Notes: generated by a model not told the origin, from the letters alone. Positions 4,667 to 44,538 are shown, numbered from the stretch's first letter. The stretch is DNA of 64,000 nt from Micavibrio sp. (GCA_020718105.1 DYDA01000004.1:6124-70123), one strand, 5' to 3'. Made by a program: numbers and translations.

Positions 4667-5637
4667 TGGCGGATGAAAAAGCCCTCGACTTTTTTTTGCA
4701 AGGCGCGGGGTGGGGTGGGGCAAGGCGCTGCGCGGTCGCTGCCGATTTTTCTTCGCGCTGTTTTTATCGCCTGACCCGCGAGGGGGCAGAACCGACAAGC
4801 GCGATTTTGATGATCGCCGCGCCGGATCAGAAAACCAAAGAATTTGTTGCTCTCGCTGCTCTTTTACGCGGTCTTGGGCTTGCTGCGCCAGAGATTTATG
4901 CGGCGGACGTGGCGGCGGGCTTGGCGTTGATGCAAGATTTTGGCGAGGACAAAGTCGGGGGTCTTTTGGACGCTGGCCGCGACCCTGCGCTGTTTGATGC
5001 AGGCGCTGCGGCGTTGCTGGCACGGCTGCACAAAAACTTTTCACCAGCGCCTGTCCCTGCGGTGTCGTTCCCCCGTTTTGATGCCGCGCTGTTGGCTCAG
5101 CAAGCGGCGCTGTTTATCGATTTTGCTTTTTTGCGTGAGTCGGGGCGCTGTGCGACAGACGGTGAGCGCGAAGGTTTTATCGCGGCGTGGCAAGAGTCTC
5201 TTGCGCCGTTTGACGCGGCGCTGCCGCGCACATTGTTGCTGCGCGATTTTATGCCCGATAACGCGATGGTGTTAGAGCCTCCCGTGACAGAGCAGACCCT
5301 TGGCGTGATTGATTTTCAGGACGCAGGGATTGGCTCGCCCGCGTATGATCTTGCCTCGTGGTGCGAGGAGGTGAGGCGCGATGGCGGCCTTGCGCGGTTG
5401 CCCTCTTTTGTCGCGGCGTATCACGCGCTGCATCCTGTGGTGGATCAGCCTCTTTTGCTGCAAGCGGCGCGGGTTTATGCCGCGCAGCGTCACACGCGCA
5501 TTCTGGGGATTCTTGTTAAGGTGGGGCGCGAGGCGATGATTCCGCGCGTGACGGATGCGGTTCAATCGTTGTTGCAAGAGGAGGCTCTTGCGCCCGTGCG
5601 GCGTTGGGCAAAGGGTTGCGGGGTGATGGGGGCATGA
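4666..5637 (+). CDS. aminoglycoside phosphotransferase (APH)-family kinase
   Basis: Motif IDFQDAGIGSPAYDLASW is typical of the APH/choline-kinase fold. ATG at 4666 overlaps the tsaE stop (TGATG), so the two are translationally coupled. Confidence 0.7.
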   Translation: MADEKALDFFLQGAGWGGARRCAVAADFSSRCFYRLTREGAEPTSAILMIAAPDQKTKEFVALAALLRGLGLAAPEIYAADVAAGLALMQDFGEDKVGGLLDAGRDPALFDAGAAALLARLHKNFSPAPVPAVSFPRFDAALLAQQAALFIDFAFLRESGRCATDGEREGFIAAWQESLAPFDAALPRTLLLRDFMPDNAMVLEPPVTEQTLGVIDFQDAGIGSPAYDLASWCEEVRRDGGLARLPSFVAAYHALHPVVDQPLLLQAARVYAAQRHTRILGILVKVGREAMIPRVTDAVQSLLQEEALAPVRRWAKGCGVMGA

Positions 5638-16558: not shown

Positions 16559-16728
16559 TAAAAACAAAGCGGTGGGGGTTGTTTCATGGGGTGTCTTTAT
16601 CGCAAGGCGGGCGGAAAAAACAGGCCAATGACAGAGCCCTTAACCAAAGAAGAGGGTTGGTTGCTTGGGGGAGATATCGTATATTCCAAGATTGGTTTGT
16701 GTTAGGATTTTAACGGGATAAAAAAGAA

Positions 16729-17955
16729 ATGGCTGCGAATAACAACGACGATCCAACATGGACCCTTGTCATCCTTGCCTCTATTTTGGGGGGCTTTGGC
16801 TGGCTCATTTGGCACTTTTTTAATCAGCCGCTTATGGAGTTTGTCCGTTACGTCAAGTTGATTGAAATGGCGCCGTTGGCGTTGGTGAATAAGCAAGCGG
16901 CCGCTTGTTTTGTGTGGTTGCGTGAGGCGCAGATAAGCGCCGCCATGCCTTCGCATGAAGCCTATCAGGCCGCGTTGGGCTGTTTTGGTGGCGCGTCGCT
17001 TGCCCGCCTGCCTGCCGCCGAGGCGTTGCAGTATTATAATGTGACGCCGACAAGTTTGGGGGCCATCAGTCGTTTCGTAGGGTCTTATGGGAAATGGCTT
17101 GTCGCAGGGTTTTGCGTCTTTGTGGCCTATTATGCGTTGTTCAAATCTGTGCGAAACGAATACAAAAAACGGCATGGCCTTGAAAGTTTTATTAAAACGC
17201 AAGCGACTGTTTGGAAGGTTATTTCTCCGATTGTTTCCTTTAATCCCTCTACGCATAGCGCACGCGTGCTTGGCGGGCGCGTTCCTAAAAAGCTTCCTCT
17301 TTTTGCCGAGGCTCTTGCGCCGGAAGAATGGCTTTCTTTTCACCAAATCCCTATCGTGAAAGGGATCCCGCGCCGTGAAGAAGTTCATCGCGCCCTTTTT
17401 TTGCAGTTGGGGCCGCGCTGGACGGAAAACTATCAAGACATGCCTTTTTATATTCAGGCTCTTTTAGCCGCCCTTGCGTTAAAGGGCGTTCAAAAGCGTG
17501 ATGAAAGCGACGCTCTTTTGGGGCGGGTTTCCGCTTGTTGGTCGCAGAGCAAGGGCATGACCTATCCATCAGAGTTGATGGCTGAGATTAAAAAAATACT
17601 GAAGGATCCCGCCATTGGAGGCGAGGCTTTGAATGTGGCCAAGAACCATGCTTTTCGGACAACGGCGGTTGTCGGGGTGTTGAAGTGGGCTCGGTTTATG
17701 GGCGGCGTTCTTGCGTCGGCTCAATTTTTGTGGCTGCGCGGCGTGGATCGTGATTTGTGGTACGCGCTGAACAATCTGGGACGGCGCTCTTTCCATACGG
17801 AAGGGGCGGGCGCGATGGCTCATTTTATGGCGGAGGATTTGGCTCATAAAGCGTTGGTTGTCCCTCGTTTTGAAACGGTTTTTATCACGCTGAACAAATA
17901 TATAGGCGACACTCAGGTGGCTATCCCGCCTTACGAAGGAACAAACCGCGCTTAA
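16729..17955 (+). CDS. DotM/IcmP-like inner-membrane protein (tentative)
   Basis: 408 aa with two or three N-terminal TM segments. Lies directly upstream of the DotL-like coupling protein, as icmP-icmO do in Legionella. Assignment by position and topology only. Confidence 0.35.
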   Translation: MAANNNDDPTWTLVILASILGGFGWLIWHFFNQPLMEFVRYVKLIEMAPLALVNKQAAACFVWLREAQISAAMPSHEAYQAALGCFGGASLARLPAAEALQYYNVTPTSLGAISRFVGSYGKWLVAGFCVFVAYYALFKSVRNEYKKRHGLESFIKTQATVWKVISPIVSFNPSTHSARVLGGRVPKKLPLFAEALAPEEWLSFHQIPIVKGIPRREEVHRALFLQLGPRWTENYQDMPFYIQALLAALALKGVQKRDESDALLGRVSACWSQSKGMTYPSELMAEIKKILKDPAIGGEALNVAKNHAFRTTAVVGVLKWARFMGGVLASAQFLWLRGVDRDLWYALNNLGRRSFHTEGAGAMAHFMAEDLAHKALVVPRFETVFITLNKYIGDTQVAIPPYEGTNRA

Positions 17956-17989
17956 GGGCGGCTCACAAAGAAGGAAGAGGAGAGAGCTT

Positions 17990-18556
17990 ATGTTTTCGGT
18001 TTTGATCAAGGATACGCCCGCCCGCGCCAAAATTGTGCGTCGGGGGCATGTGCCGTTTCTTTTGGCCGCGTTTCAATTGAGCGCGCCGCCTTTGGTGTGG
18101 CAAGCCGACCTTGAAAAAATGGCGAACACGACGATTGCCCTTCGCGAAAAAGAAGGTTCGTGGGAGTTGGGGTATACGCCTTTGGGACAGGGAGCGTTTG
18201 TGACGGTGGCTTCTTTTGATGAACGGCATGAGGCAGAAAAGGCCTATGCCGTTGTTCAACGAGCGATGGGGCATAGCAGTGGGCCTATAGCAGCAGGAAA
18301 AGGGTTCGGGTTCTTGCGCTTTTTAGTGTGGCTTATTGTGTTGGCGATGCTTCTTTTTGTTGGCGCTTCTCTTTTTGGGGAAAAGGCCGAGACTGTTTCC
18401 TCTGTTGCTTCAAGCGCGGGGCAGGGGTCTTTGCAAGAAATGGGAAATCAAGCGGTGGGCTTGCAAGCGCCTGCGTCTCAGCAAGAGCCATCGCCTAAGG
18501 AGCTTCGAACGGGCGTGCCCGCAAACGCGGATGACGTTTTACCAAACGTGCCATGA
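17990..18556 (+). CDS. hypothetical membrane protein
   Basis: 188 aa with one central TM (FLVWLIVLAMLLFVGASLF). Sits between the DotM-like and DotL-like genes. Confidence 0.3.
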   Translation: MFSVLIKDTPARAKIVRRGHVPFLLAAFQLSAPPLVWQADLEKMANTTIALREKEGSWELGYTPLGQGAFVTVASFDERHEAEKAYAVVQRAMGHSSGPIAAGKGFGFLRFLVWLIVLAMLLFVGASLFGEKAETVSSVASSAGQGSLQEMGNQAVGLQAPASQQEPSPKELRTGVPANADDVLPNVP

Positions 18557-18606
18557 AAAAAGGTTCTTCCTGATAAAGAGGGAGGGATGGGGAGAGAAAA
18601 AAGCTT

Positions 18607-21036
18607 ATGACTCTTTTTGCTAAACATAAAATCAATTACCGCGATTTTATTCGCGATGTGCGCCCCGCCTCTGTGCGGATCAAGGAGTATTGGAACAAGC
18701 CCGATATTTTTGCGGCTGTTGCGATTATGGCTGTTATTGGCGTTTTAGCATCACCGGTTACGGCGGCTTGGAGTGATGCGATCCTTATCTTTATGATTTT
18801 TTATGCGCGTTGGGTTTTGCTTAAAACGTCGTTTGAACTTCCTTTGAAGATGCCGATGCAGGCCGCGCCCTTGCCCGATCCGCATAATCCTAAACCCGGA
18901 AAAGGCGGCGCAGGTAAGTCGGAAGGTATTTTATACCTTGGTAATTTGGATGAGGAAAAGCATCCGGAAAATGGGCGCGAGCTTTGGCTCACCAACGCCG
19001 ATGCCCGCACGCATATGTTGTTTTTGGGAACGACAGGTTCGGGCAAGACAGAGGGGCTTAAGTCGCTGGTCGCCAATTCTCTGACATGGGGATCGGGCTT
19101 CGTTTATGTTGATGGTAAGGCCGATACGGATTTGTGGGCCTCGCTTTATGCTTTGGTGCGGCGGTTTGGTCGCGACGATGATATTTTGGCGCTTAACTAC
19201 ATGACCGCGAACTCGGATAGCGGCGCGGTATCGAATACGATGAATCCGTTTTCCAACGGCTCTGCGTCTTATATCACCAACATGGTTGTTAGTTTGATGC
19301 CTGACGCAGGCGGCGATAACGCCATGTGGAAAGAACGTGCCGTGGCTTTGATGGGCGCGCTTATGCCCGCGCTGACGTGGAAGCGTGATCGCGGCGATAT
19401 CTTACTCGATGTCAGCGCTTTGCGCGATTACATTGAATTGCCCGCGATCATTCGCCTTTCGCGTGATCCTGATTTGCCAGAGCGCATTTTGCGTGGCCTG
19501 CAGGGGTATTTAACGACATTGCCAGGTTATATTGATGCGGCGTTTGATGACGAAGGAAACGAGAAGCCGCCTTCGCCCGATCAGCCCATGTATGATTTGC
19601 AAGTGGCGCGGCAACAACATGGCTATTTGTCCATGCAGTTTACGCGTTCCTTGCAATCACTGGCCGATGATTATGGTTATATTTTCCGCGCTCAATTGGC
19701 CGATGTCGATGTTTTGGATGTTGTCATCAATCGCCGCGTTCTTGTCGTTTTGATCCCTTCGCTTGAGAAATCGGGCGATGAAGCGGCAAACCTTGGTAAA
19801 ATCGTTGTGGCCAGCATGAAGGGCATGATGGGCGCGACGCTGGGCAACACGGTCGAAGGCAGTTGGGAAAGTGCGATTGGCAGCAAGCAAACGCGCTCAC
19901 AATCGTCGTTCATGGCCGTGTTTGACGAGGTGGGGTATTACACCGCGCCCGGTATGGCCGTGATGGCGGCGCAAGCGCGTTCCCTTGGATTCTCGCTCAT
20001 CTTTGCGGCGCAGGATTTGCCGTCGATGGAAAAACGCGTCAAGCAAGAGGCGCAGTCTATTTTGGCGAACTGTAACTTGAAGATTTTCGGCAAGATTGAA
20101 GACCCCGGTGACACGAAAAAGTTTTTTGAGGATCATGCAGGCTCGGAGTTCGTGATGGATGCCAGCGGCATGGAGGCAAGGCACGACACCGTTTCAAGTA
20201 TGTTTTTGTCGCATGCTTTTTATGACAACCATAAATCCACAGGCTTGCAGGTTCGTCCTCGCGCTGTTTATGATCATTTGCGTGGACAGCGTGAAGGCGA
20301 AGTCCATATGCTCTTCGCGCAGTATATCGTTCGTGCCCGTATGTTTTATGCTGTTCCGGATAGGGCGGGCGCTTTGCGGGTGCATAAACTTTTGCCCGTT
20401 CCTGCAACCACGGATCTGCTTAAGAATCGCGAACGGATCATCGCTGAGGTGGCCACGCGACTCAATGATTCGTCATGGACAGCGGCCAGTGCCGCGCCTG
20501 CACAAAAAACGCCGCCTGAAATTGCTGGCCTTGTTGCGGGGCTTGAGGCCGCTAAAGCTGCGGGGAAAACCGCTGTTGAGGCGGTCGCGGCGGCGGTCGG
20601 CGGATTGCCTAAGGTGGTCACGTCGCCTCAGCGTTTGTTTGAGGGGGATGATGGGACTGCGGCGGCTCCGGCGACAAGCGCTCATCCAAAAAGCGCCTCG
20701 TCAAAGAGCGGTGGCGGTGTCGGGAGTTCTGTCGTTATGCCGTGGGAGACGCCAGCGGGCGCGCCTTCGGCGCAGACGCCAACAGATGCGCCTTCAGCGC
20801 AGGGGGCCGAAGACTTGTTGGAATCTTTTGAGGAAAGCCCTATGGACGGGGTGGATACCAGCGGATTCCTTCCTCATGATCTTGATACCAGCATCGTGCC
20901 GCGTGTCGAGGTTGAGGGAGACGGCACGGACATCACAAAGTTAAAACTGCCCGATGACATGACGGCCTATCTTGAAAACATGGCAGATAAGCTGAACAAA
21001 GGGCTTGGCAGCGATGCCGCAAAGGATACGGATTAA
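18607..21036 (+). CDS. DotL/IcmO-like type IV coupling protein (VirD4/TraG family ATPase)
   Basis: 809 aa. N-terminal TM pair. Walker A LGTTGSGKTEGLKS and Walker B-like VFDEVGY. Long acidic, disordered C-terminal tail (EDLLESFEESPMDGVDTSGF...) resembling the adaptor-binding tail of DotL. Confidence 0.65.
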   Translation: MTLFAKHKINYRDFIRDVRPASVRIKEYWNKPDIFAAVAIMAVIGVLASPVTAAWSDAILIFMIFYARWVLLKTSFELPLKMPMQAAPLPDPHNPKPGKGGAGKSEGILYLGNLDEEKHPENGRELWLTNADARTHMLFLGTTGSGKTEGLKSLVANSLTWGSGFVYVDGKADTDLWASLYALVRRFGRDDDILALNYMTANSDSGAVSNTMNPFSNGSASYITNMVVSLMPDAGGDNAMWKERAVALMGALMPALTWKRDRGDILLDVSALRDYIELPAIIRLSRDPDLPERILRGLQGYLTTLPGYIDAAFDDEGNEKPPSPDQPMYDLQVARQQHGYLSMQFTRSLQSLADDYGYIFRAQLADVDVLDVVINRRVLVVLIPSLEKSGDEAANLGKIVVASMKGMMGATLGNTVEGSWESAIGSKQTRSQSSFMAVFDEVGYYTAPGMAVMAAQARSLGFSLIFAAQDLPSMEKRVKQEAQSILANCNLKIFGKIEDPGDTKKFFEDHAGSEFVMDASGMEARHDTVSSMFLSHAFYDNHKSTGLQVRPRAVYDHLRGQREGEVHMLFAQYIVRARMFYAVPDRAGALRVHKLLPVPATTDLLKNRERIIAEVATRLNDSSWTAASAAPAQKTPPEIAGLVAGLEAAKAAGKTAVEAVAAAVGGLPKVVTSPQRLFEGDDGTAAAPATSAHPKSASSKSGGGVGSSVVMPWETPAGAPSAQTPTDAPSAQGAEDLLESFEESPMDGVDTSGFLPHDLDTSIVPRVEVEGDGTDITKLKLPDDMTAYLENMADKLNKGLGSDAAKDTD

Positions 21037-34307: not shown

Positions 34308-35732
34308 TTGCTCATGTCTGTCGTTGTTCGCTTTGCCCCGTCGCCTACCGGATTCCTTCATATTGGGGGGGCGCGTACCGCGCTTTTTAATTGGCTTTAT
34401 GCCCGTCATACGGGTGGCCAATTCTTGATGCGGGTGGAGGATACGGATCGCCAGCGGTCAACACCGGAATCGGTTCAAACGATTTTGGACGGCATGACGT
34501 GGCTGGGCATGGATTGGGACAACAATGATCCCGCGCTCAATCATGGGAAGCATTATTATTCTCAGTTTGATATGGCTTCTCGCCATCGGGAGGTTGCGCA
34601 GAAGATGGTGGCGAATGGGACGGCTTATTATTGTTATGCCTCGCCGCAAGAGTTGGACGCCATGCGCTGTGAGCAAAAGGAAAAGGGGCTGCCGCAAAAA
34701 TATGATGGTCGGTGGCGTGATCGTCCCGCCCATGAGGCTCCCGAAGGCGTGAAGCCTGTGGTTCGCTTAAAGGCTCCGCAGACGGGGGAGACAGTTGTCG
34801 AGGATAAGGTTCTTGGGCGCGTTACTGTTCAAAACGCACAGCTTGATGACATGATCCTTCTTCGTGCGGATGGCACGCCCACTTATATGTTGGCCGTTGT
34901 CGTGGACGATCATGATATGGGCATCACGCATGTTGTTCGCGGTGACGATCATTTTACCAACACGTTCCGGCAGGTTCAGATTTATAAGGCGATGGGGTGG
35001 GACGTCCCGACCTTTGCCCATTTACCCATGATTTTGGGGCCGGATGGGGCCAAGCTTTCCAAGCGGCATGGTGCGCCCGCCGTGTCGGACTATCGCGATC
35101 GTGGCTATTTGCCAGAGGCGATTCGCAATTATCTTCTTCGCCTTTGCTGGGGGCATGGTGATGATGAAATTATTTCAACCGATCAAGCGATTGAATGGTT
35201 TGATTTTGATGGTGTTGGGCGTTCCCCTGCGCGGTTTGATTTTGCCAAGCTGAACCACCTCAATGCGCATTATATTGGATTAATGGAAAACGACAAACTG
35301 GCGCTGGCAACGCTGCCTTTCTTAGAAAAAAGGCTGGGACGCGCTGTTGGCGCGGCAGAGCAAGCCTTGCTTGAAAAAGCCTTACCTGACATCAAGCCTC
35401 GCGTTCAGCTTTTGACCGAAATTGCCGAGGCGGCGCAGTTTTATTTTGATGTGTTAGAACCTGATGAAAAAGCTCAAAAAATCCTGACGCCGGAGGCTAA
35501 GGGTCATTTAGCGGCGCTTTTAAAGCGGATCGATGCCCTTGATGCCTTCACGCACGATGTTCTTGAAGGGCTGTTCCGCTCTTATGCCGAAGAAAACGGC
35601 CTGAAGCTTGGTTCTGTGGCACAGCCCTTGCGGGCGGCGCTGACAGGGCGCGGCGTCTCCCCCCCCATTTTTACGGCGGCGGCTCTGTTGGGGAAGGGCG
35701 AGGTTTTAAGGCGGCTTGGGGGCGTGCTATAA
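34308..35732 (+). CDS. gltX: glutamate--tRNA ligase
   Basis: Class I HIGH motif (RFAPSPTGFLHIGGARTAL) and KMSKS motif (KLSKRHG). 474 aa. Confidence 0.9.
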   Translation: MLMSVVVRFAPSPTGFLHIGGARTALFNWLYARHTGGQFLMRVEDTDRQRSTPESVQTILDGMTWLGMDWDNNDPALNHGKHYYSQFDMASRHREVAQKMVANGTAYYCYASPQELDAMRCEQKEKGLPQKYDGRWRDRPAHEAPEGVKPVVRLKAPQTGETVVEDKVLGRVTVQNAQLDDMILLRADGTPTYMLAVVVDDHDMGITHVVRGDDHFTNTFRQVQIYKAMGWDVPTFAHLPMILGPDGAKLSKRHGAPAVSDYRDRGYLPEAIRNYLLRLCWGHGDDEIISTDQAIEWFDFDGVGRSPARFDFAKLNHLNAHYIGLMENDKLALATLPFLEKRLGRAVGAAEQALLEKALPDIKPRVQLLTEIAEAAQFYFDVLEPDEKAQKILTPEAKGHLAALLKRIDALDAFTHDVLEGLFRSYAEENGLKLGSVAQPLRAALTGRGVSPPIFTAAALLGKGEVLRRLGGVL

Positions 35733-35861
35733 CTTGATGATGGCTTCTTAATAAAAATTTGAGGAATGAGGCATTATTTCATAAAATACTTTCATAAGGT
35801 ATGCTATTGGTTTCTTCGGGATTTTACCCTTATCGGAAAATAGGCAAGCAGGAAAGTTGAA

Positions 35862-36362
35862 ATGACCACTGATTCATCGTCACAGACGCTTGTAGAAACA
35901 AAGTCCCAAGATAAAGGCGGCGATGGGCAAAGCGTTCAGGCCTCTTCCCCCCCTTCGTGGCTTGATCAAGATGTTGCGCTTCGCCGTTTGTGGGAAGAAA
36001 ACAAAACACCAGAAGCTATTGCAGAAGAATTAGGCCGTTCTATTGCCGCGATCATGACGCGGGCGGCGCGGCTTGGGTTGCCGCGACGTTCGGCGCCTGG
36101 GCGCAAGCGTGGGTATAAAAGAACGGATGCGCCGCGTCGCGTGACGAAGAAGGTTCAATGTATTAAGGCTGCTGTTCCAACGGAATTGGGCGGGGGTGAC
36201 ACTTATGCACCACCTCAAGTCTCGATGCGAATTTGTTTGATGTGTTTAAACAAGTTTCAATCATTGGGGCGGTTTAATCGCATTTGTCCGAGCTGTAAGG
36301 GCTCGGCGGAATATGCCACGGGAAGCAGCACACCAGACTTCACGTTTCGTGTGACAAGCTAA
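35862..36362 (+). CDS. GcrA-like cell-cycle regulator domain protein with C-terminal Cys4 ribbon
   Basis: SWLDQDVALRRLWEENKTPEAIAEELGRSIAAIMTRAARLGLPRR resembles the GcrA N-terminal DNA-binding domain. C-terminus CLMCLNK...ICPSCK is a CxxC...CxxC motif. AT-rich promoter region upstream. Confidence 0.45.
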   Translation: MTTDSSSQTLVETKSQDKGGDGQSVQASSPPSWLDQDVALRRLWEENKTPEAIAEELGRSIAAIMTRAARLGLPRRSAPGRKRGYKRTDAPRRVTKKVQCIKAAVPTELGGGDTYAPPQVSMRICLMCLNKFQSLGRFNRICPSCKGSAEYATGSSTPDFTFRVTS

Positions 36363-36428
36363 AAAAGCGGTTTTGAAGGCTCGTTGATGGCGATGCCTTT
36401 TGTTTTAGAAGAAGGTTAAGGGGGTCCA

Positions 36429-37061
36429 ATGTCGTTATCGGATGCGGTTTCAACGGTTTTATCGCGCAATGTGTTTTATCGTGATGGCTATAGGCTTCTT
36501 GTCCGCATCAGCCTTGTTCAAAGTCTCTCCATTGTTCTGTTGATTGCGGCGATTATCGCCATGCTTCTTTCCATGGAAACGCGGCGCGTTTATTTTGCGA
36601 CAACATCCGATGGGCGTATCATTAACATTGTTCCGCTTAATGAGCCTTATCGTTCACGCGGCGATGTTGTTGCGTGGGCGGCTGGGCGCGCCCAAGAGGT
36701 CATGCGTTTTGGATATAACGACTTTCGTCAAAGACTTCAGGCCTCTTCTGTCAATTTTACGGCGACGGGATGGGAAAGCTTCACAAAGGCTATGCGCGAG
36801 GCGCGTATTCTTGAGGCTATTGAGGCGCGCAAGCTAACGGTTTCCATGCAAATTGAAGCCGCGCCCGAAGTTAAAAAGGCGATGGACAATCAAGGCGTTT
36901 ACACATGGTATCTCCAGTTTCCTGTCTCGATCAAGTTTGATGGCCAAGAAGTCCTCGCGCCTATTCAAGCTACGCTGGTTCTTCAGGTTGTGCGCGTTTC
37001 TACGCTGCAAAGTCCCGAAGGCATCAGTATTGAGCAGTGGATTGCTGTTCCAAGGAGTTAA
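36429..37061 (+). CDS. DotI/IcmL-like (VirB8-fold) T4BSS inner-membrane protein
   Basis: 210 aa (Legionella IcmL is 212 aa). Single N-terminal TM followed by a periplasmic domain. First gene of a cluster collinear with icmL-K-E-G-C-D-J. Confidence 0.5.
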   Translation: MSLSDAVSTVLSRNVFYRDGYRLLVRISLVQSLSIVLLIAAIIAMLLSMETRRVYFATTSDGRIINIVPLNEPYRSRGDVVAWAAGRAQEVMRFGYNDFRQRLQASSVNFTATGWESFTKAMREARILEAIEARKLTVSMQIEAAPEVKKAMDNQGVYTWYLQFPVSIKFDGQEVLAPIQATLVLQVVRVSTLQSPEGISIEQWIAVPRS

Positions 37062-37063
37062 GC

Positions 37064-37834
37064 GTGGGCGATTCATTCTCCAAGACTTCACCAGACGCGG
37101 CTTCTGAGCAGACAGCTTCCCCAAAGGAACCCGTCGCTCTTGGCGTTAAGCGGGATTCATGGCTGTCGGGGTTGACCCATTTTTTTCGGGATGATCCTCT
37201 TGTTGAAACAACACCATCAAATCCAAAAGCAGAAAGACTGCGATTCAAAAAGACGGCAGCAGGCGTACAAAGACGCATGTATATTGTCTTGGGGCTTGTC
37301 TTTCTTAATGTTCTTTTGGCTCCCCTTTTGCGGCCGACTTATCAGCACATAGCCTTTTCTGACGATAAAAAAACAAAGCCTTTGTTTTCGTTGTCAGAGC
37401 CCAATCAAACCGATCAAGCCGTGTTATCATGGGCGGCGACGAGCATTACGGAAATCATGACGTTTGGGTTCGGTGATTTTGATCAACGTATCTTGGCACA
37501 GCGTGCGCGTTTTACGGATGTGGGGTGGCAAAGTTTTCTTGATGCCTTGATAGAACAAAAGCTGCGCGAGGGCTTCAAAATGCGGCAGCTTGTCTTGACA
37601 ACGGTTCCAACGGATTCGCCCGTTATCGTTTCCAAGGGCGAGGCCGTGGATGAAGAATATGATGGAGAGGGGAAGATGTACCAATGGGTCGTTGAAATGC
37701 CCGTTATTATGACCTATACGACGAATAATAATGTTTCCTCGGCCAGCAAGGGCATTGTTCGGCTAACGATTGTCAGGGTGTCTGGGAAAAAAAATCCGAC
37801 AGGGATTGGCATAAAAACGTGGCGATTTGTGTGA
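37064..37834 (+). CDS. DotI/DotJ-family paralog
   Basis: Clear paralogy to the preceding gene (VVAWAAGRAQEVMRFGYNDFRQRL vs VLSWAATSITEIMTFGFGDFDQRI). GTG start at 37064 with AAGGAG RBS 6 nt upstream. The ORF track's earlier ATG at 37037 overlaps the upstream gene. Confidence 0.45.
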   Translation: MGDSFSKTSPDAASEQTASPKEPVALGVKRDSWLSGLTHFFRDDPLVETTPSNPKAERLRFKKTAAGVQRRMYIVLGLVFLNVLLAPLLRPTYQHIAFSDDKKTKPLFSLSEPNQTDQAVLSWAATSITEIMTFGFGDFDQRILAQRARFTDVGWQSFLDALIEQKLREGFKMRQLVLTTVPTDSPVIVSKGEAVDEEYDGEGKMYQWVVEMPVIMTYTTNNNVSSASKGIVRLTIVRVSGKKNPTGIGIKTWRFV

Positions 37835-37996
37835 TAAGAGCAGGGAAAGTGGCGGCGGCTTTTTGTTTTTCTGTGCGGGGAAGGCACGCCTTATTGGAAG
37901 AGAGAATAAAAAAAACATAAACTTTATATTAACACTGATTTGGTGAGAATGGGATAAGGAGCGGTAGAATGATTTACACTGATTCGGGGATGTCCT

Positions 37997-39142
37997 TTGT
38001 TTCGTAAAAACGAACGTATTTCGCTGGCCTCAACCACGCAAAGCGTGGTCGGGGGGCTTGTTTTCGTTGTTGCTTTAAGCGCTTCATCATTGTGGGCGCA
38101 AGATAAGGCCCCCCCTTCTTTGACGATGTCTGTGCGCGCCGCTTTGGCTTCAGCGCAAAAAAGCAGTGGTGAGCCCTCAATTGATGCTGCCTCTAAGGGT
38201 TCAGAAAAAGCGGCGCCTACAACGGGGGGCATTGATTTGCCCGGAGCGCCTCCTTTAAGTGAATCTGTGGCAGATCAGCTCAATCTTGAACAACAGGCCG
38301 AAGAAGCCGCAGCGCGTGCAGCAGAAGAACAGCTTCAAAGAGAAGAAGATCATAATCGTAAATCGTATAAGCGTGCTTCGCAGGGGCTTTTGCCTTTATC
38401 GCCGGATCAAGTTCGTGATTTTATGCGAAAGCTGGAAACAACACAGGAATCGGCTATTCCACCTCATACAGGATCGCCCAAGGGCGAGGTTAAGGTTGTT
38501 GGCGTTTCGTTGGATCCTGGTGGTGAGCCTGCGCAAATTAATTTAGCGGCAGGCTACATTACGACAATTGACATCATTGATATAACAGGAGAGCCGTGGC
38601 CCATTCTTGATGTTGGTGTGGGGGGCAATTTTGAAGTGACCCCGACGCAAGCTGGTTCCCATGTTGTTCGCGTTGTTCCTTTGACGCGTTTTGGAACGGG
38701 CAATTTGTCCATCTTGCTTAAAGGCCTGTCAACGCCGATCATTTTCCGTCTGTCGTCTGGCGGGCCAACTTTTCATATGCGCTTTGATGCGCGTGTGCCC
38801 AGCCTTGGCCCCAACGCCAAGACCCCATTGATCGATCATCGTCGCAAAGGGCCTGTGGCGGGTGACGCTGTGCTTTCTATGATCCTTGAAAATGCGCCAC
38901 CGCCCGATGCCAAAAGACTTAAGGTTGGTGGTGTGGATGCAAGAACGATGGCGTGGCAAATTGGGGAGAGCGTTTATGTTCGTACGCCTCTGGCGCTTTT
39001 ATCACCGGCGTGGAATGCCAGTGCGTCATCGGCGGATGGAATGACGGCTTATGAAATTGGGAACGCTCCTGTTCTCTTAATGTCAGATAATGGCGCCATG
39101 ATACGCGCGCGCCTCATGCGGGAAGACGGCCATGACAAATAA
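37997..39142 (+). CDS. DotH/IcmK-like outer-membrane/periplasmic T4BSS core protein
   Basis: 381 aa (IcmK is 360 aa). Signal peptide ending SLWAQD. Position between DotI-like and DotG-like genes. TTG start in the ORF track. Confidence 0.5.
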   Translation: MFRKNERISLASTTQSVVGGLVFVVALSASSLWAQDKAPPSLTMSVRAALASAQKSSGEPSIDAASKGSEKAAPTTGGIDLPGAPPLSESVADQLNLEQQAEEAAARAAEEQLQREEDHNRKSYKRASQGLLPLSPDQVRDFMRKLETTQESAIPPHTGSPKGEVKVVGVSLDPGGEPAQINLAAGYITTIDIIDITGEPWPILDVGVGGNFEVTPTQAGSHVVRVVPLTRFGTGNLSILLKGLSTPIIFRLSSGGPTFHMRFDARVPSLGPNAKTPLIDHRRKGPVAGDAVLSMILENAPPPDAKRLKVGGVDARTMAWQIGESVYVRTPLALLSPAWNASASSADGMTAYEIGNAPVLLMSDNGAMIRARLMREDGHDK

Positions 39143-40631
39143 TACGGACGAGTTTGATCAGGATCAATTTGACTCCATGGATTCTCGCGAATCCTTTGGG
39201 GAGCCTGCGGAGGCTAAAAAGGGTTTTTTTGAAACGCTTAAGAATAAGCCTATTGTCAAATTGCTTATCATTATGGGTTTCGTCGGCGTTGCCTTGGCGG
39301 GGGCTTTAGGCTCTTTTACCAGCGCACCAGAAGCCCCTGCCTCTAATTTGGCAAAAGCGCCTGCCCTTAATGAGCCGCCGGGTGGATCGGCAACGCCGTT
39401 CTTTAATGAACAAAACGATAAAGCCAATGCGCAACGGGTTGGACAAGCTTTGACGGAAGGTGGAAGCGCGATACCAACGCCGAGCGGGCACGATGTTACC
39501 GATCTGACGGACAAAAGAAAGGATCCTTTGGTCGAGTTTAGGGCTGAGACTGAGCGCCTTAAGCAAGAGATGGCTGCGCAACAAAAACAAAACAACCAAC
39601 AACTTCAGCTTATGCAGCAGCAAATGCAAGTCAGTCAGCGCGGCGGCGGGGCTGAGGATGATTCTTTGGCAAAAGCTATGCAAAAACAAATGCAGCAATT
39701 GATGGAAGGATGGACTCCTGCGCGCGCAAAATTTGTTACAGGAACAACGCCCCCAGTCACAGAAACGCGTTTGCAACAAGAGGCCGCCCTGCAACAAAAG
39801 AACATGACTTCTGCGGGAGAAGTGGCGCCTGTGGCGAAAAAGGCCATCGTGCCAGCGGGAACGGTTAACTATGCCCAGCTTTTAACCGAAGCGAATTCGG
39901 ATGTTCCGGGGCCTATTTTGGCGCAGATATTGTCTGGCCCTCTTTCTGGGGGAAGGGCTATCGGTCAATTTAAGGTTATGAGTGACTATTTGGTTTTGAC
40001 CTTTAGCACGGTGACCCATAAGGGCAAAGAATATGCGATCAATGCCTTGGCTTTAGATCCCGATACGACTTTAGGCGGGATGGCAACAGAGGTTGATCAT
40101 CGCTACTTTACGCGTGTCCTTCTTCCTGCGGCGGGAGCGTTTGCTTCGGCTTTTGGTAAGGCTTTGAGCGAGACGGAGACCGAAACGACGGTTGTTGATG
40201 GAACCGTTATATCGGATCAAGCCAAAAAGGGAACCAAGGAGGCGTTGTACGCGGGGCTTGGCGAGGTCGGCGATACGGTGGCCGAGTTCCTTAAGAACGA
40301 AGCCAACAACACTAAAACGCTGGTTCGCGTTGCGGTTGGCACGCCGATGGGGATCTTTTTCTTGAGCTCTGTTACAGAATCAGGACAAAATCAACAAGGG
40401 GGCTATGGCGATAATTCTGGGGCGCTTAATGGAGCACAGCTGTTAAAGGGCTATCAACAAATGGGAGTCATGGGCGGAACCTCTTCAGGGGGCAACGGGT
40501 CTTATTATCCTTCCCAAGGCTACTCTTCTAATGGGCAATCTTACAGTCAAAGTCAGAAAAACCCCGTCATGAACAGCAAGTTGACGCCAGCCCAGATTCA
40601 AATGCTCAATTCTTTTTCAAGTGGGTATTGA
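39132..40631 (+). CDS. DotG/IcmE-like (VirB10/TrbI-domain) T4BSS core protein
   Basis: N-terminal cytoplasmic tail plus one TM. Gln-rich linker. C-terminal region with VirB10-like beta-barrel pattern (LVRVAVGTPMGIFF). Start overlaps the DotH-like stop. Confidence 0.5.
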   Translation: MTNNTDEFDQDQFDSMDSRESFGEPAEAKKGFFETLKNKPIVKLLIIMGFVGVALAGALGSFTSAPEAPASNLAKAPALNEPPGGSATPFFNEQNDKANAQRVGQALTEGGSAIPTPSGHDVTDLTDKRKDPLVEFRAETERLKQEMAAQQKQNNQQLQLMQQQMQVSQRGGGAEDDSLAKAMQKQMQQLMEGWTPARAKFVTGTTPPVTETRLQQEAALQQKNMTSAGEVAPVAKKAIVPAGTVNYAQLLTEANSDVPGPILAQILSGPLSGGRAIGQFKVMSDYLVLTFSTVTHKGKEYAINALALDPDTTLGGMATEVDHRYFTRVLLPAAGAFASAFGKALSETETETTVVDGTVISDQAKKGTKEALYAGLGEVGDTVAEFLKNEANNTKTLVRVAVGTPMGIFFLSSVTESGQNQQGGYGDNSGALNGAQLLKGYQQMGVMGGTSSGGNGSYYPSQGYSSNGQSYSQSQKNPVMNSKLTPAQIQMLNSFSSGY

Positions 40632-40825
40632 TTTGTGGCAGGGGGCTGTTTTGTTCGTGGTGCGAAACATAAAATAGCTTCAATCTGACCCTAAGATGGT
40701 TTATCGTGAGCTCCTGTTTTTGAAGGGGTCTTCCTTGCTTGCCTGTGTGGGGCGAGGAGGGGGTATCTTAAAGAGTTGGGAAAGCTCTGCGGACTTGCTT
40801 AAGTAGTGTATGAAAGGGATCTGTT

Positions 40826-42103
40826 ATGACGGATAAACCAACAGAAACAGGGGAAGACCTGTCTCTTCAAGATGACTTTTCTCCAAGCGATTCATCAACG
40901 GAAGCATGGCAAGATGCCCTTCCCCCTGAAGATGATTTTCATGATCAGGACGAGGGAGCCGAAGAAATTCTTGATGAAATGGTAGAAGAGGCCACCAAGC
41001 AAGAGGGCGGTGACCCGCCCAAACGTGGACGCGGCGTTTTGATGGGAGCCTTGGGCGTTGGGGCTCTTCTTATCGGAGGCTTGGCTTATCTTCAGTTTGG
41101 CTCTTCGACAAAAGACGACGGGCTAAAGGTGATGCCCGTTTCGAATGTCATGAATATAAAAGAAATTAAGAGCGCCCCTGGTCCTAAAGAGGATCCTTTG
41201 GCTAAAAAAGAGCAACCGCTTGATGCCACAGGCAAGGTTGATATGACCGCTATTTTTCATCAGGCACAAAAGAAGGTGACGACGGGCGGAACGATGGCTC
41301 TTCCCATTAAAGAGGGGGAAAAGCTTCCAACGGAACGCCCAGAGTCCGTTGAGAAAAACACTGAGATTTTATCGTCAAGCGATAATGGGGGCTTGCCGTC
41401 TTTGCCTCCAACGCCTGCTCCCCTTTCTGGGACACAGGCTGTTCAAGAGCTTAAAGTTGAAACGCTTCCTGTCAAAAAAGAGGAAATTAAAGCGCTTTCT
41501 ACGGGGGCGCCGCAAGTCGCTTGGGAAGAACGCATAAACGAAATGACGGCCAAGGTCGAAACCTTAAAAGGAGAACTGGATCGTTCTTTGCAACAGAATG
41601 CACAACTTGTATCGCAAGTGGAAACATTGAAAAAAGCAACGGCTTTGTCACAAGAGGCGGCTTTGCGAGAACAGGTTGCTCAGCTTGAGCAAAAACTGGC
41701 CGCAAAAGACAAAAAACAAGAAAACGCCTCTCTTCTTTTAGAAGGGAAGGGCGAGAATGCCGTTGGTCAGGCCGATGTTGTTTCGGGGGATGAATCTTCC
41801 CCTCCTGCGCCCATGATTGCCTTAGATGGGGTAAAGAAAAAGGAAAAGGCCTCTTCTCAAAAAACACGCACCAAGACGTCAGCAAAAAAAGCAACCAAGA
41901 AAAAAGCGCCACCCGCCCCCTCCTCTTCTTGGGTGCTTCGTGCGGCGACGCCTGATGCGGCTTGGGTTTCTTCTGGTTCAGAAAGCCAAGAATTGCGCCG
42001 TGTCGCTGTAGGGGAAACGCTGCAGGGGCTTGGGAAAGTAAAAGAAATTCGTCAAAATGGTGAAAAGTGGGAGGTTGTCGGAGAAAAAGGAACGCTTCGC
42101 TAG
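40826..42103 (+). CDS. DotF/IcmG-like bitopic coiled-coil protein (tentative)
   Basis: Acidic N-terminus, single TM (GVLMGALGVGALLIGGLAYL), long coiled-coil and Lys-rich region. Occupies the icmG position of the cluster. Confidence 0.35.
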   Translation: MTDKPTETGEDLSLQDDFSPSDSSTEAWQDALPPEDDFHDQDEGAEEILDEMVEEATKQEGGDPPKRGRGVLMGALGVGALLIGGLAYLQFGSSTKDDGLKVMPVSNVMNIKEIKSAPGPKEDPLAKKEQPLDATGKVDMTAIFHQAQKKVTTGGTMALPIKEGEKLPTERPESVEKNTEILSSSDNGGLPSLPPTPAPLSGTQAVQELKVETLPVKKEEIKALSTGAPQVAWEERINEMTAKVETLKGELDRSLQQNAQLVSQVETLKKATALSQEAALREQVAQLEQKLAAKDKKQENASLLLEGKGENAVGQADVVSGDESSPPAPMIALDGVKKKEKASSQKTRTKTSAKKATKKKAPPAPSSSWVLRAATPDAAWVSSGSESQELRRVAVGETLQGLGKVKEIRQNGEKWEVVGEKGTLR

Positions 42104-42132
42104 TCCCTATTCATTGGGCGAATGAGAAAAAA

Positions 42133-42157
42133 GAGGGGGCTTGCGCCCTCTTTTTTT
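42133..42157 (+). terminator. rho-independent terminator candidate after the DotF-like gene
   Basis: GAGGGGGCttgcGCCCTC stem followed by TTTTTTT. Confidence 0.4.
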
Positions 42158-42290
42158 GTCTCGAAATTAAACAGGTTTTTAATTGTTTAAGGCACAATGG
42201 ATATGAGAGAATGCGCTATAAGGCGCTGTTTTTTGAAAAGGTGAAGCGGAAGATGTGGTGTCTCCCCCCCTTTTGTCGCGGAGCAAGAAC

Positions 42291-43235
42291 ATGGGTTTGA
42301 AAATGGATAAAAAATATTCAAAAGGAACTTATTTCTTTCCTTTTTTTGTCGCGCTCTTTTTTCATCCCAGCAGTGTTTGGGCACAAAACACTTTGGGAAC
42401 CCTTCTTTGTAATGCAAAGGATGCGGGGACATCCTATCCCCTCATTCTTAATGCCATCGCCTATATTGCGGGCGCTTTTTTGACGGTGCGTGCCGTTCTT
42501 TTATTTAAAAGACATGCCGAAAATCCAAACCAATCTCAAATCGTTGCGGGGGTGGCGCATGCTGTCGGCGCGGCTTTTCTTCTTTCCTTGCCTCTCTTTG
42601 CGGGCGTTATTCAGGAATCTATTTTAGGAAGTGTTACGGGCACATGGGATGGCGCCTGTACGGAAGGCGGTGTTGTCAGCGCAAGCGCCCTTGATGTCAT
42701 GATGCAAAACCTTGTGACGAATATTCATGGGCCGATGTTTAAATTGCTGTCGATGCTCAGCGTGATCATCGGCCTGACGTTTATTGTAAAGGGATTGTTT
42801 GCCGGTGTTAAAACGGGCACGGACCCGCGCGCCTCTAGCCCCAAGACCATCATTGTCAATTTGGTTATTGGGGCGGTTCTGATTTCAATAGGGGGCGTGC
42901 TGAATGACCTTCTCCTAACGATTTTTGGCGGAACAACGGCTTCTCCCAGCAATATGAGAAACTTTTCTGGCATTGCCTGGTCCACTTTTGTTGGATCGGG
43001 CGTTGATACCATCGCTGCCGATAATACGGTGAAGGCGATTTTGGCCTTTATTCAAATTATTGGGGGCATTGCTTTTCTTCGGGGCTGGCTGATTGTTAAA
43101 GCTGCGGTTGAAGGCGGGGGGCAGGCGACGATCCCTCAAGGTGTTACCCATATCGTTGGGGGCGCGATGGCTGTTAATATCGATGTCATGCTTAAAATCA
43201 TCGATAATACGTTTGGAACGGGGATCATTAATTAG
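42291..43235 (+). CDS. DotE/IcmC-family polytopic membrane protein (tentative)
   Basis: Signal peptide plus at least four TM helices. Shares the YxLILNAIxYIxGAFxxVxAxLxxKRHAENP motif with the next gene, as the IcmC/IcmD paralogs do. Much longer than Legionella IcmC. Confidence 0.35.
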   Translation: MGLKMDKKYSKGTYFFPFFVALFFHPSSVWAQNTLGTLLCNAKDAGTSYPLILNAIAYIAGAFLTVRAVLLFKRHAENPNQSQIVAGVAHAVGAAFLLSLPLFAGVIQESILGSVTGTWDGACTEGGVVSASALDVMMQNLVTNIHGPMFKLLSMLSVIIGLTFIVKGLFAGVKTGTDPRASSPKTIIVNLVIGAVLISIGGVLNDLLLTIFGGTTASPSNMRNFSGIAWSTFVGSGVDTIAADNTVKAILAFIQIIGGIAFLRGWLIVKAAVEGGGQATIPQGVTHIVGGAMAVNIDVMLKIIDNTFGTGIIN

Positions 43236-43440
43236 GGCGTTAATTAAATCCTTGTTAAGAAATACATAGGACAATAAGGGAAAGGACAAGCTTCTAAAAA
43301 CATTGAAAGTAATCAGGAGGCTGTTGATACCGAAAGAAAGTTGATGTAGCCTTACCTTTATGGCAAAGGCAGAATTCAACAAGAACGCAAGACCCTTTTA
43401 CCAAAGGGATAAGGCAACTTTTTATAACCAGGAGGAAACG

Positions 43441-43827
43441 ATGAAAAAAAGCGTATTGATGGGCGAAATGTTCAAGTGGGGCGTTCTTACGGCGATCATT
43501 GCCGTGGCTATGCCAGAGCTGGTGTCGGCACAAACGGGGGTTAATGCTTTGCTCACTGATGTGACCCAAGAGCAGCTGCCTGTGTTCCCCTATATTTTGA
43601 ATGCCGTTTGTTATGTCGGCGGTGCCTTTATGATGGTTTCGGGTGCTTTGAGCCTTAAGAAACATGCGGAAAACCCAACCAGTGAGCCTATGTCTAAGGG
43701 CATTGCGCGTCTTCTTACGGGTGGCGCTATTACGGCCGTTCCGACGCTAACAAAAGTTTTACAAGAAACTGTTTTTACGGCAACCTCTGGGCCTGCCGAC
43801 TACACAGGGTTTACGCCATCTTTTTAA
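43441..43827 (+). CDS. DotP/IcmD-like small membrane protein
   Basis: 128 aa from ATG 43441 with an AGGAGG RBS (IcmD is 132 aa). Signal peptide. Paralogous core PYILNAVCYVGGAFMMVSGALSLKKHAENP. Confidence 0.4.
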   Translation: MKKSVLMGEMFKWGVLTAIIAVAMPELVSAQTGVNALLTDVTQEQLPVFPYILNAVCYVGGAFMMVSGALSLKKHAENPTSEPMSKGIARLLTGGAITAVPTLTKVLQETVFTATSGPADYTGFTPSF

Positions 43828-43839
43828 CAAGAGGGTTTC

Positions 43840-44538
43840 TTGACCTTTCTATCCCTTTCTCTTGGCGTCGGGCAGCGGCTTGACGCCAAGGGGACGGTTT
43901 CAAAGAATAGTGTTCCGTCCAAGGGCCAGTTTGAAAAAACGCTTGGACGCGATTCTTTTTCTTGCCGTTGCTGCGGGTTCACTTCCCCAAAATACCAACG
44001 CGTTCTTTCCGTGAGCGCCCTTTCTTCGGGAAAGGGTGGCGGGGAGGATTTTGTGGCGGTCTGTTCCTTTTGTGAGCTGACGGCAACGCTTGACCGTGCG
44101 GGCCAGACAGCGGCGGGTTATGTGATCTGGTTGCCTGAGCTATCGCAAGGCGATCTCAACCACGTTATGCACGCGCTTTATATTGCGCGCGAAAGCGCCC
44201 ATGCTGAATTATCCAAAGCGGCCTCTCGCACCTTGGATGTTTTGACGGCAAGGCGGGCTGAGGCCAAGAAGCGGCTGGGCACGGATGATCCTTTGATTTT
44301 TGCCACGGCTCTTTTAGAGCAGGTGGAGCCAGCCCATGATGCCGCACGAGCGGCGCGGTTAGAGGGGCTTCGTTTTTTGCCGCTTGATCGTTACTTTGTT
44401 CCCGTTCGCGGCAAAGAAACCAACGTATTTCCGCAAATGCTGGCCTATTGGGCCTCTGCCGAAGGCCCTTACGGAAAGCTGCCTGTTGAGCAGTGGACGG
44501 CGCTGTTTGATGATGTGACCGCAAAAGCTGGCGCGTAA
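43840..44538 (+). CDS. DotN/IcmJ-like Cys-rich cytoplasmic protein (tentative)
   Basis: 232 aa (IcmJ is 208 aa). Cys clusters CRCCGF and CSFCEL. Occupies the icmJ position after the icmC/icmD-like genes. TTG start with AAGAGGG RBS. Confidence 0.35.
   Translation: MTFLSLSLGVGQRLDAKGTVSKNSVPSKGQFEKTLGRDSFSCRCCGFTSPKYQRVLSVSALSSGKGGGEDFVAVCSFCELTATLDRAGQTAAGYVIWLPELSQGDLNHVMHALYIARESAHAELSKAASRTLDVLTARRAEAKKRLGTDDPLIFATALLEQVEPAHDAARAARLEGLRFLPLDRYFVPVRGKETNVFPQMLAYWASAEGPYGKLPVEQWTALFDDVTAKAGA

Follow-up and report, generated by a model that had tools for sequence, protein, structure and literature searches.

A GcrA-type DNA-binding protein with a Cys4 zinc module, encoded ahead of dotI, is a candidate dedicated regulator of a type IVB secretion operon in uncultured Alphaproteobacteria

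What controls a type IVB secretion system (T4BSS) in uncultured Alphaproteobacteria? To our knowledge, almost all that is understood of type IVB regulation comes from Legionella and Coxiella, in which unlinked two-component systems are responsible. In a 64,000-nucleotide (nt) stretch of Micavibrio sp. DNA (GCA_020718105.1 DYDA01000004.1:6124-70123; hereafter the window), a small open reading frame (ORF) precedes the dotI-dotN cluster of T4BSS genes. A first-pass annotation had described it as a GcrA-like regulator that might couple secretion to the cell cycle or to DNA methylation. Our preferred reading, to which we give a probability of roughly 55%, is that its product is a transcription factor dedicated to the dotI-dotN operon, encoded by the first cistron and acting back on the shared promoter. 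We favor this reading because of the homology and structure of the DNA-binding domain, the invariant recognition helix and adjoining basic arm, the synteny with dotI, the terminator-free spacer and the conserved promoter. The protein would most likely activate or repress the operon independently of the methylation state of the DNA. It combines a GcrA-type DNA-binding domain with changed specificity residues, a different, uncharacterized zinc module and an operon-specific genomic role.

The gene and the conserved parts of its product are located as follows.

35862-36362, plus strand: candidate regulator gene, a 166-residue ORF with an ATG start
35952-36116, plus strand: GcrA-type three-helix DNA-binding domain (residues 31-85)
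36222-36314, plus strand: Cys4 zinc module (residues 121-151), with invariant cysteines and motif
36315-36359, plus strand: C-terminal tail xTGSSxPDFxF(K/R)V, defined by column conservation (predicted local distance difference test score, pLDDT, 64-69)

A disordered N-terminus (residues 1-30) is thus followed by a GcrA-type helix-turn-helix (HTH) domain, a basic and then acidic linker, the zinc module and the conserved tail. The ORF has a ribosome-binding site, AGGAAAG, at 35850-35856. The first-pass annotation had let the feature run from 35733 to 36362; its end holds, and its start is the first base past gltX, so that the span took in the promoter. The gene is genuine, and selection on it is strong: we located 290 homologues (E 0.01 or better) in a collection of 5.8 billion proteins, with 48-78% identity and ∼40 invariant positions.

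The N-terminal domain, earlier likened to that of GcrA, is a real GcrA-type DNA-binding domain. Residues 32-86 align with residues 2-60 of Caulobacter crescentus GcrA in hhalign (94% probability, E 1e-7), and a profile of 28 family members retrieves the same protein from the PDB (7ye1_G, E 3.6e-4). The GcrA profile of Pfam (PF07750), proposed earlier as a check, does match in a single-sequence search (residues 33-97 on profile positions 3-64 of 155), with a score of 19.7 bits that lies under the 26.9-bit cut-off. The NCBIfam equivalog for GcrA (NF050816, "cell cycle sigma 70 cofactor GcrA") gives 22.4 bits against a cut-off of 280 bits, the alignment ending at profile position 70. An AlphaFold2 model calculated from the 28-member alignment contains three helices (residues 33-45, 50-57, and 61-71) with pLDDT values >90. 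The recognition helix, RS(V/I)AAIMTRAARLGLPRR, and a basic arm, PGRK(R/P)G (residues 79-84), are invariant in 120 homologues, in which the uninterrupted stretch from Arg-59 reads R59-S-(V/I)-A-A-I-M-T-R-A-A-R-L-G-L-P-R-R-x-A-P-G-R-K-(R/P)-G and overall identity drops to 48%. The N-terminal 30 residues and the linker are variable and predicted to be disordered.

In C. crescentus GcrA, Arg-33, Asn-34, Ile-37, and Gly-38 build two shallow pockets for the N6-methyl groups, the bases of YGAKTCG are read by Asn-34, Ile-37, His-41, and Arg-42, and Lys-39, Trp-3, and Trp-15 contact the DNA backbone (PMC5887438). We mapped the equivalent positions through the hhalign alignment and counted them in the 120 homologues. 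Trp-3 (Trp-33 in the Micavibrio protein), Trp-15 (Trp-44), Lys-39 (Arg-67), and Arg-42 (Arg-70) are kept, and Ile-37 corresponds to Met-65, which preserves its hydrophobic character. Gly-38 is replaced by Thr-66 in all 120 sequences, His-41 by Ala-69 in 118, Arg-33 by Val-61 or Ile-61 in 117, and Asn-34 by Ala-62 in 102 and by proline in another 16. Among the residues that read bases or methyl groups, only the hydrophobic position of Ile-37 and Arg-42 are therefore kept. Judged from these alignments, the fold and the DNA-binding face of the GcrA domain are preserved, and the residues that recognize methyl groups and GANTC are replaced.

The C-terminus had been described as carrying a CxxC-x16-CxxC motif. 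The four cysteines are indeed present and are invariant in the 120 homologues, with a spacer of 13 rather than 16 residues (C125-x2-C128-x13-C142-x2-C145). They form part of the signature R-x-C-L-M-C-L-x-x-F-x-S-x-G-x-x-N-R-I-C-x-x-C-K-G-S-x-E-Y, which is invariant as far as R-x-C-L-M-C-L-x-x-F-x-S-x-G-x-x-N-R-I-C-x-x-C-K. In the AlphaFold2 model the first cysteine pair sits on a β-hairpin (knuckle) and the second at the N-terminus of a helix (pLDDT 78-86), an arrangement that looks treble-clef-like. The first-pass annotation had also held that this region differs from the canonical sigma-70-interacting domain (SID) of GcrA, and the comparison of 24 zinc modules from close and distant relatives with five canonical SIDs, all of which display the expected CxWPxGxP...FxFCG...YCxxH pattern, bears this out (hhalign homology probability 0.24%). 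The SID, too, is a zinc finger, of CCCH type (C-x14-C-x9-C-x2-H), and offers Trp-120, Phe-130, Phe-132, Tyr-142, and Tyr-151 to sigma region 2 (PMC5887438); zinc binding alone thus fails to separate the two C-termini, and it is the missing homology that sets them apart. The Cys4 module has no significant match in Pfam (per-member scans) or in the PDB (profile searches), and attempts to assign it to a zinc-finger family returned chance-level matches only (antibody light chains, zf-RING_4, DZR_2). Two superficial likenesses, between the tail GSSTPDFTF and the sigma-binding GFTF/DFxF motif of GcrA, and between C-x2-C-K-x4-Y and C-x2-H-x4-Y of GcrA, were rejected by profile-profile alignment. The conserved tail is specific to the clade that is linked to chromosomal T4BSSs, and it may represent a protein-contact motif.

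The protein and C. crescentus GcrA (PF07750; PDB IDs 5YIU/5YIV/5YIX and 7YE1) thus share a general plan, being small proteins with a DNA-binding domain, a long disordered linker and a zinc-stabilized C-terminal module, and both are confined to the Alphaproteobacteria. Compared with GcrA, the DNA-binding domain has two one-residue deletions and the additional invariant PGRK(R/P)G arm, the C-terminus carries a Cys4 motif (CxxC-x13-CxxC) with no detectable homology to the CCCH-type SID, and the gene is tied to one operon, whereas GcrA runs a global cell-cycle regulon. The HTH domain is the one feature of GcrA that is found; a SID, the residues of the N6-methyladenine pocket, a whole-protein score above the cut-off, and GANTC sites in the intergenic regions on either side of the gene are all missing. 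With four of five defining features absent, the protein has a GcrA-type DNA-binding domain but falls outside the GcrA family in its curated sense. Several family members have been named "GcrA family cell cycle regulator" automatically, which is more than the evidence supports, and our analysis corrects this annotation.

A scan of one genome per GTDB species located the family in 63 genomes, all from uncultured Alphaproteobacteria and labeled Micavibrio, "Bdellovibrionales," Rhodospirillaceae, or Rickettsiales; every named protein among the 290 homologues comes from a metagenome-assembled genome (MAG). The label "Bdellovibrionales" arises because the NCBI taxonomy places Micavibrio in that order, and the many MAGs labeled "Bdellovibrionales bacterium" that contain the family have alphaproteobacterial gene content. 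We compared gene order by tblastn of the window proteins onto the family loci, 60 of which include downstream DNA. The position directly ahead of the T4BSS genes, noted before for the window alone, proved general: the gene lies on the same strand and upstream of dotI in 60 of 60 species-level genomes, with a median distance of 26 nt between its stop and the dotI start (≤30 nt in 31 of the 60 loci). The upstream neighbor varies, being gltX only in closer relatives (14 of 60 loci) and type IVb pilus genes in another locus (L003). Two loci (L038 and L047) contain an insertion of ∼2.3 kb between the gene and dotI; in L038 (6511-8637) this is a single co-oriented gene for an M3-family oligopeptidase, packed as tightly as if it were a member of the operon.

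More distant relatives upstream of T4BSS genes share 27-40% identity and were located in five further contigs and on one Thalassospira plasmid. In a sister clade (∼40% identity; P0144, P0145, and P0148), the gene precedes dotI-dotH-trbI, directly so in L070 and L076 and with one small ORF between it and dotI in L074. L076 also contains a Fic-domain gene and a small partner gene on the opposite strand between dotI and dotH (4570-5190). The only match among 72,556 plasmids is a 136-residue homologue (36% identity over both domains) on a plasmid of Thalassospira xiamenensis, where genes for a CHC2/DnaG-type primase, DotI, and DotH and a gene of the size of dotG come next. Only two relatives came out of a search that started from this homologue. 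The gene order recurs in P0121 and P0256, and a primase separates the homologue from dotI in the plasmid-type clusters L068, L069, and L073.

The first-pass annotation had placed the gene 66 nt ahead of a DotI-to-DotN cluster, and both statements are correct: the stop codon is exactly 66 nt from the dotI ATG (36429), and the cluster is confirmed by Pfam and NCBIfam matches. No terminator is predicted in the spacer (36363-36428), the sole terminator-like call in 35500-38200 sitting within dotI, and the spacer RNA has no significant structure (fold z-score +0.56). A terminator or attenuator in this interval was looked for by terminator scan, RNA folding and alignment of ortholog spacers, and none was found. 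The only conserved feature among the aligned spacers is a ribosome-binding site, AAGGGGG (36418-36424). A spacer that lacks a terminator and conserves only a ribosome-binding site implies that the gene is co-transcribed with dotI.

The gene is also preceded by a promoter of its own, as had been proposed, in AT-rich DNA: the GC content is ∼34% in the 129 nt 5' of the ORF (measured over 35720-35839) compared with 52.7% in the window. Three elements can be distinguished.

35748-35762, plus strand: conserved upstream element TTAATAAAAATTTGA (TTAA-N7-TTGA), whose 3' TTGA opens the -35 hexamer
35759-35787, plus strand: sigma-70-like promoter TTGAGG-17 nt-TAAAAT, from consensus scan and composition
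35787-35794, plus strand: block TACTTTCA (consensus TTA[CG]TTTCAyaAG), the most conserved block of the promoter, abutting the -10 hexamer

When orthologous upstream regions are aligned by anchoring on the most frequent word, they share the order GTTAAyAnAAATTTGA(g/t), a TGCrTTAT-like stretch, an A/T-rich -10 and TTA[CG]TTTCAyaAG over ∼55 bp, to which closer genomes add TGTGCTATnGG after the last block; the DNA that flanks these blocks cannot be aligned between genomes so far apart. At ∼20 orthologous loci, TTGA of the -35 and an A/T-rich -10 occur in the same register. TTAA-N7-TT[GA]A is present in 26 of the 62 upstream regions, where 1.9 are expected and no more than 6 arose in any of 200 shuffles. 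A[CG]TTTCA, counted on the coding strand, is present in 33 (2.0 expected; shuffle maximum 6), and the composite of both at fixed spacing in 16 (0 expected; shuffle maximum 0). The element TTAATAAAAATTTGA resembles a CtrA box or an UP element, TTAA-N7-TTGA being one base off the CtrA box TTAA-N7-TTAA and recurring at this position in ∼25 orthologous loci; CtrA boxes are not significantly in excess in the window (8 compared with 4.3 ± 2.4 expected). A palindromic operator, TGAAA-N3-TTTCA, is found in few loci, such as L001, and is not general. TACTTTCA together with a perfect TTAA-N7-TTAA within 60 nt also occurs at 669-696, near the left end of the window, and at 43244-43311, in the intergenic DNA separating the TraQ-like ORF from the T4BSS ORF that follows it, in both cases with an orientation and spacing unlike those of the main promoter.

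We propose that the sigma-70-type promoter would drive the gene as first cistron of the dotI-dotN operon, and that the product probably binds this same promoter and sets the level of itself and of the secretion genes. The TTA[CG]TTTCA block beside the -10 hexamer is the candidate operator. The GcrA-type HTH domain with its remodeled recognition surface probably reads a target other than methylated GANTC, and the PGRK(R/P)G arm probably makes a further contact in the A/T-rich minor groove alongside. In reverse complement the block reads TGAAAsT, which has the TGA that starts the GcrA site TGATTCG and is read there by a conserved arginine; a shared reading of this triplet is inference only. The Cys4 module and the tail probably form a protein-contact domain in place of the SID, for which RNA polymerase, the protein itself or a component of the secretion system are candidate partners. 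By analogy with GcrA, a tether of the Cys4 module to RNA polymerase would be attractive.

Could the protein instead be a GcrA-type activator that acts on hemi- or fully methylated GANTC in the T4BSS promoters, coupling their expression to CcrM and the cell cycle, as the first-pass annotation had suggested? We regard this as very improbable. The DNA-binding domain is truly of GcrA type, and GANTC is mildly under-represented overall (observed/expected 0.68-0.71), as would be expected if a CcrM-like enzyme were present. The 173 sites of the window are in the range of other palindromic pentamers, and no DNA methyltransferase turned up among the scanned window ORFs. Neither intergenic region, 35733-35861 or 36363-36428, contains a GANTC. 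The only site close by lies at 35871, 10 nt into the ORF; GcrA is able to act from positions 3' of the transcription start (PMC9976885). The orthologous promoters are not enriched either (38 sites in 62 upstream regions compared with 48 ± 7 expected) and conserve no GANTC position. Sites are spread at 3.2 per kb of intergenic and 2.6 per kb of coding DNA in the window, and the T4BSS-associated intergenic DNA, at ∼3.1 per kb, equals the general intergenic density. A GANTC triplet at the start of dotG (39171-39193; GACTC, GATTC, and GAATC at 9-nt spacing) encodes Asp/Glu-Ser dipeptides, is limited to the closest relatives and is best taken as a coding coincidence. In addition, the counterparts of Asn-34, Gly-38, Arg-33, and His-41 are replaced across the family and the SID is absent. 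The first-pass annotation had named GANTC enrichment in T4BSS promoters as one test of its proposal; with no such enrichment and with the residue changes, the methylation reading fails this test, which was set for it beforehand.

Two further explanations, both of which we consider unlikely, leave out transcription altogether. The protein could be a DNA-processing or transfer accessory inherited from I-type conjugation that binds an oriT-like or primase-associated site. In plasmid-type relatives a DnaG-type primase directly follows the gene, then dotI-dotH-dotG, with a RecD2-like helicase nearby, and the T4BSS genes resemble IncI TraO and TraQ; yet neither a primase nor a relaxase adjoins the gene in the window or in the 60 related genomes, the T4BSS occupies three separate chromosomal clusters amid housekeeping genes with no relaxase identified in the window, and a position at the head of an operon behind a conserved promoter is typical of a regulator. 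The invariance of the recognition helix over 60 species moreover suggests one conserved site per genome, and only the promoter is conserved nearby. Alternatively, the protein could belong to the machine itself, as a cytoplasmic component or adaptor (a partner of DotL-DotM-DotN) or as a substrate, with an HTH-like domain that makes protein contacts or is vestigial. Its linkage is as tight as that of a structural gene (gaps of 2-30 nt in half of the genomes), the tail is conserved, flexible and Ser/Thr-rich with hydrophobic residues near its end, and IcmJ/DotN, a zinc-binding protein of the Dot/Icm system, is encoded in the same operon. Against this, the protein retains the residues through which the GcrA fold contacts DNA and carries an additional basic arm. 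Proteins with the same two domains are also encoded in phage-like contexts and beside carB, away from any T4BSS, and the candidate regulator has no similarity to a named Dot/Icm protein in Pfam or NCBIfam.

The dedicated transcription factor that we prefer has points against it as well. Binding to DNA, the identity of the operator and whether the operon is activated or repressed are features that we infer. The promoter set is related by descent, so that the shuffle controls overstate the independence of its members, and the conserved blocks could be sites for other factors, TTAA-N7-TTGA looking like a CtrA box. If this CtrA-like element were real, the T4BSS could be coupled to the cell cycle through CtrA and not through the GcrA-like protein. 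A position weight matrix for TTA[CG]TTTCA does not match systematically before dotH, before the ORF that follows dotG, or before the other two T4BSS clusters of the window, and a regulon wider than the own operon is thus not supported; a search for a regulon-wide motif with the TACTTTCA word and the matrix over the window and the 60 loci returned scattered matches (4 in the window compared with 2.1 expected). More distant relatives are found in phage-like or prophage-like contexts. Finally, for two members of the sister clade (P0280 and P0283; loci L075 and L077), carB-greA lies downstream in place of T4BSS genes, and the function need therefore not be limited to secretion. Words similar to the promoter blocks occur in this clade (TTACTTCA, TTACTGTCA, and AAAATTTTATTGAC) and are kept even where no T4BSS genes lie downstream, the upstream blocks of L075 and L077 being common to the T4BSS-linked loci L070 and L076, which fits autoregulation. 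The upstream neighbors (flagellin and two unknown genes) and the promoter words are retained together in L075 (6001-6471) and L077 (5001-5465); either the regulator remained in place when the T4BSS was lost or relocated, or it serves a different target there.

A more far-reaching version of the dedicated regulator, which we hold to be doubtful, is a secretion-dedicated counterpart of GcrA in which the HTH domain finds the dotI promoter while the Cys4 module and the tail dock on RNA polymerase or on DotL-DotM-DotN. If this were true, docking on RNA polymerase would make the protein a second, independently evolved "pre-recruited" polymerase cofactor, and docking on the coupling complex would let the state of T4BSS assembly or activity feed back on its own transcription through sequestration or export of the regulator. 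FlgM, the export-linked regulator of flagella, is a model for such feedback, and we know of no such circuit in any type IV secretion system.

Dedicated or operon-head regulators are known for related machines: TraB and TraC in the IncI plasmid R64, and PmrA, CpxR, and LetA for Legionella dot/icm, the latter belonging to two-component systems encoded elsewhere in the genome. The role proposed here is the same, that of a small DNA-binding protein controlling the genes of a type IVB (I-type) machine, and there is no sequence relationship between our protein and R64 TraB/TraC or the Legionella regulators. Nor did searches of Pfam, NCBIfam, or PHROG link the protein to any named component of the Dot/Icm or IncI Tra/Trb systems, and the literature searched contains no description of a GcrA-type-fold regulator of any type IV secretion system or of a GcrA HTH combined with a Cys4 module. 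The family hence provides a candidate regulator encoded in cis and conserved like the machine itself in a large uncultured alphaproteobacterial radiation (Micavibrio-like MAGs) and on some plasmids, and its gene can serve as a marker for these T4BSS loci. With one protein, one promoter and one candidate operator, it would offer a testable handle on when predatory or host-associated Alphaproteobacteria deploy a T4BSS. It may also represent a natural experiment in which a GcrA DNA-binding fold was retargeted from methylated GANTC and sigma-70 region 2 by exchange of recognition residues and of the C-terminus. The strict synteny and the domain swap should be noteworthy for specialists in the alphaproteobacterial cell cycle or in T4BSSs, although the organisms are uncultured and the function is a proposed one.

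The genes downstream, whose order is kept in the orthologous loci, are arranged as follows.

36363-36428, plus strand: spacer to dotI, 66 nt
36429-44538, plus strand: T4BSS operon, by Pfam and NCBIfam matches
36429-37061, plus strand: DotI (Pfam/NCBIfam)
37037-37834, plus strand: DotI paralogue (Pfam/NCBIfam)
37997-39142, plus strand: DotH (Pfam/NCBIfam)
39132-40631, plus strand: DotG/TraO (Pfam/NCBIfam)
40826-42103, plus strand: ORF of the operon without an assigned family
42255-43235, plus strand: TraQ/DotE-like ORF (Pfam/NCBIfam)
43360-43827, plus strand: second ORF of the operon without an assigned family
43840-44538, plus strand: IcmJ/DotN-like ORF (Pfam/NCBIfam)

The two consecutive DotI/IcmL-family genes share 25 nt, and the product of the second is considerably extended at its N-terminus. 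All related loci keep the pair, which may correspond to DotI-DotJ of Legionella. DotG starts with an acidic motif of ∼15 residues, MTNNxDEFDQ(D/E)QFD (39132-39180), which is strongly conserved across ∼30 genomes and unusual for an N-terminus. A GroEL gene lies beyond the DotN-like ORF on the opposite strand; on the 5' side, the candidate regulator gene is preceded by gltX (34308-35732) and, earlier, by comEC, lexA, and flagellar hook genes. Further T4BSS genes of the window encode DotM/DotL (16729-21036) and DotD/DotC/DotB (60941-63538), and the full spans of the three chromosomal clusters are 13574-21036 (DotM/DotL), 35862-44538 (DotI-DotN), and 58163-63538 (SLT/DotD/DotC/DotB). Because housekeeping genes (addAB-like, tsaE, flagellar genes, lexA, comEC, gltX, and groEL) separate these clusters, the arrangement is chromosomal and Legionella-style, and the system looks like an effector-type Dot/Icm system rather than a mobile element.

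An exhaustive HMMER search places the family in a wider superfamily (3251 representatives at E ≤1e-3, 213 at 1e-10, and 23 at 1e-30) that is characterized by one or two GcrA-like HTH domains followed by R.CL.C...F.S.G..NRIC..CK....[YW]; our protein has both, in this order, and the same Cys4 signature is found in 25 distant members. In PHROG the DNA-binding domain matches phrog_323 (transcriptional regulator, E 4e-8) and the zinc module phrog_13335 (function unknown, E 3e-6), whereas tblastn of 50,697 phage genomes gave no match at E <0.01. Unlike the GcrA-like proteins of phages, our protein is encoded by a chromosomal, operon-leading gene that is linked to a T4BSS. Many proteins of 200-800 residues (P0151, P0153, P0157-P0164, and others) contain 4-11 tandem copies of the GcrA-like HTH domain, a repeat architecture that, as far as we have seen, carries no annotation. 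One phage-like contig (L071) encodes a distant HTH-Cys4 relative (3258-3755) together with an N6/N4 DNA methyltransferase (6872-7681), an arrangement that recalls the pairs of GcrA-like and CcrM-like genes carried by Caulobacter phages.

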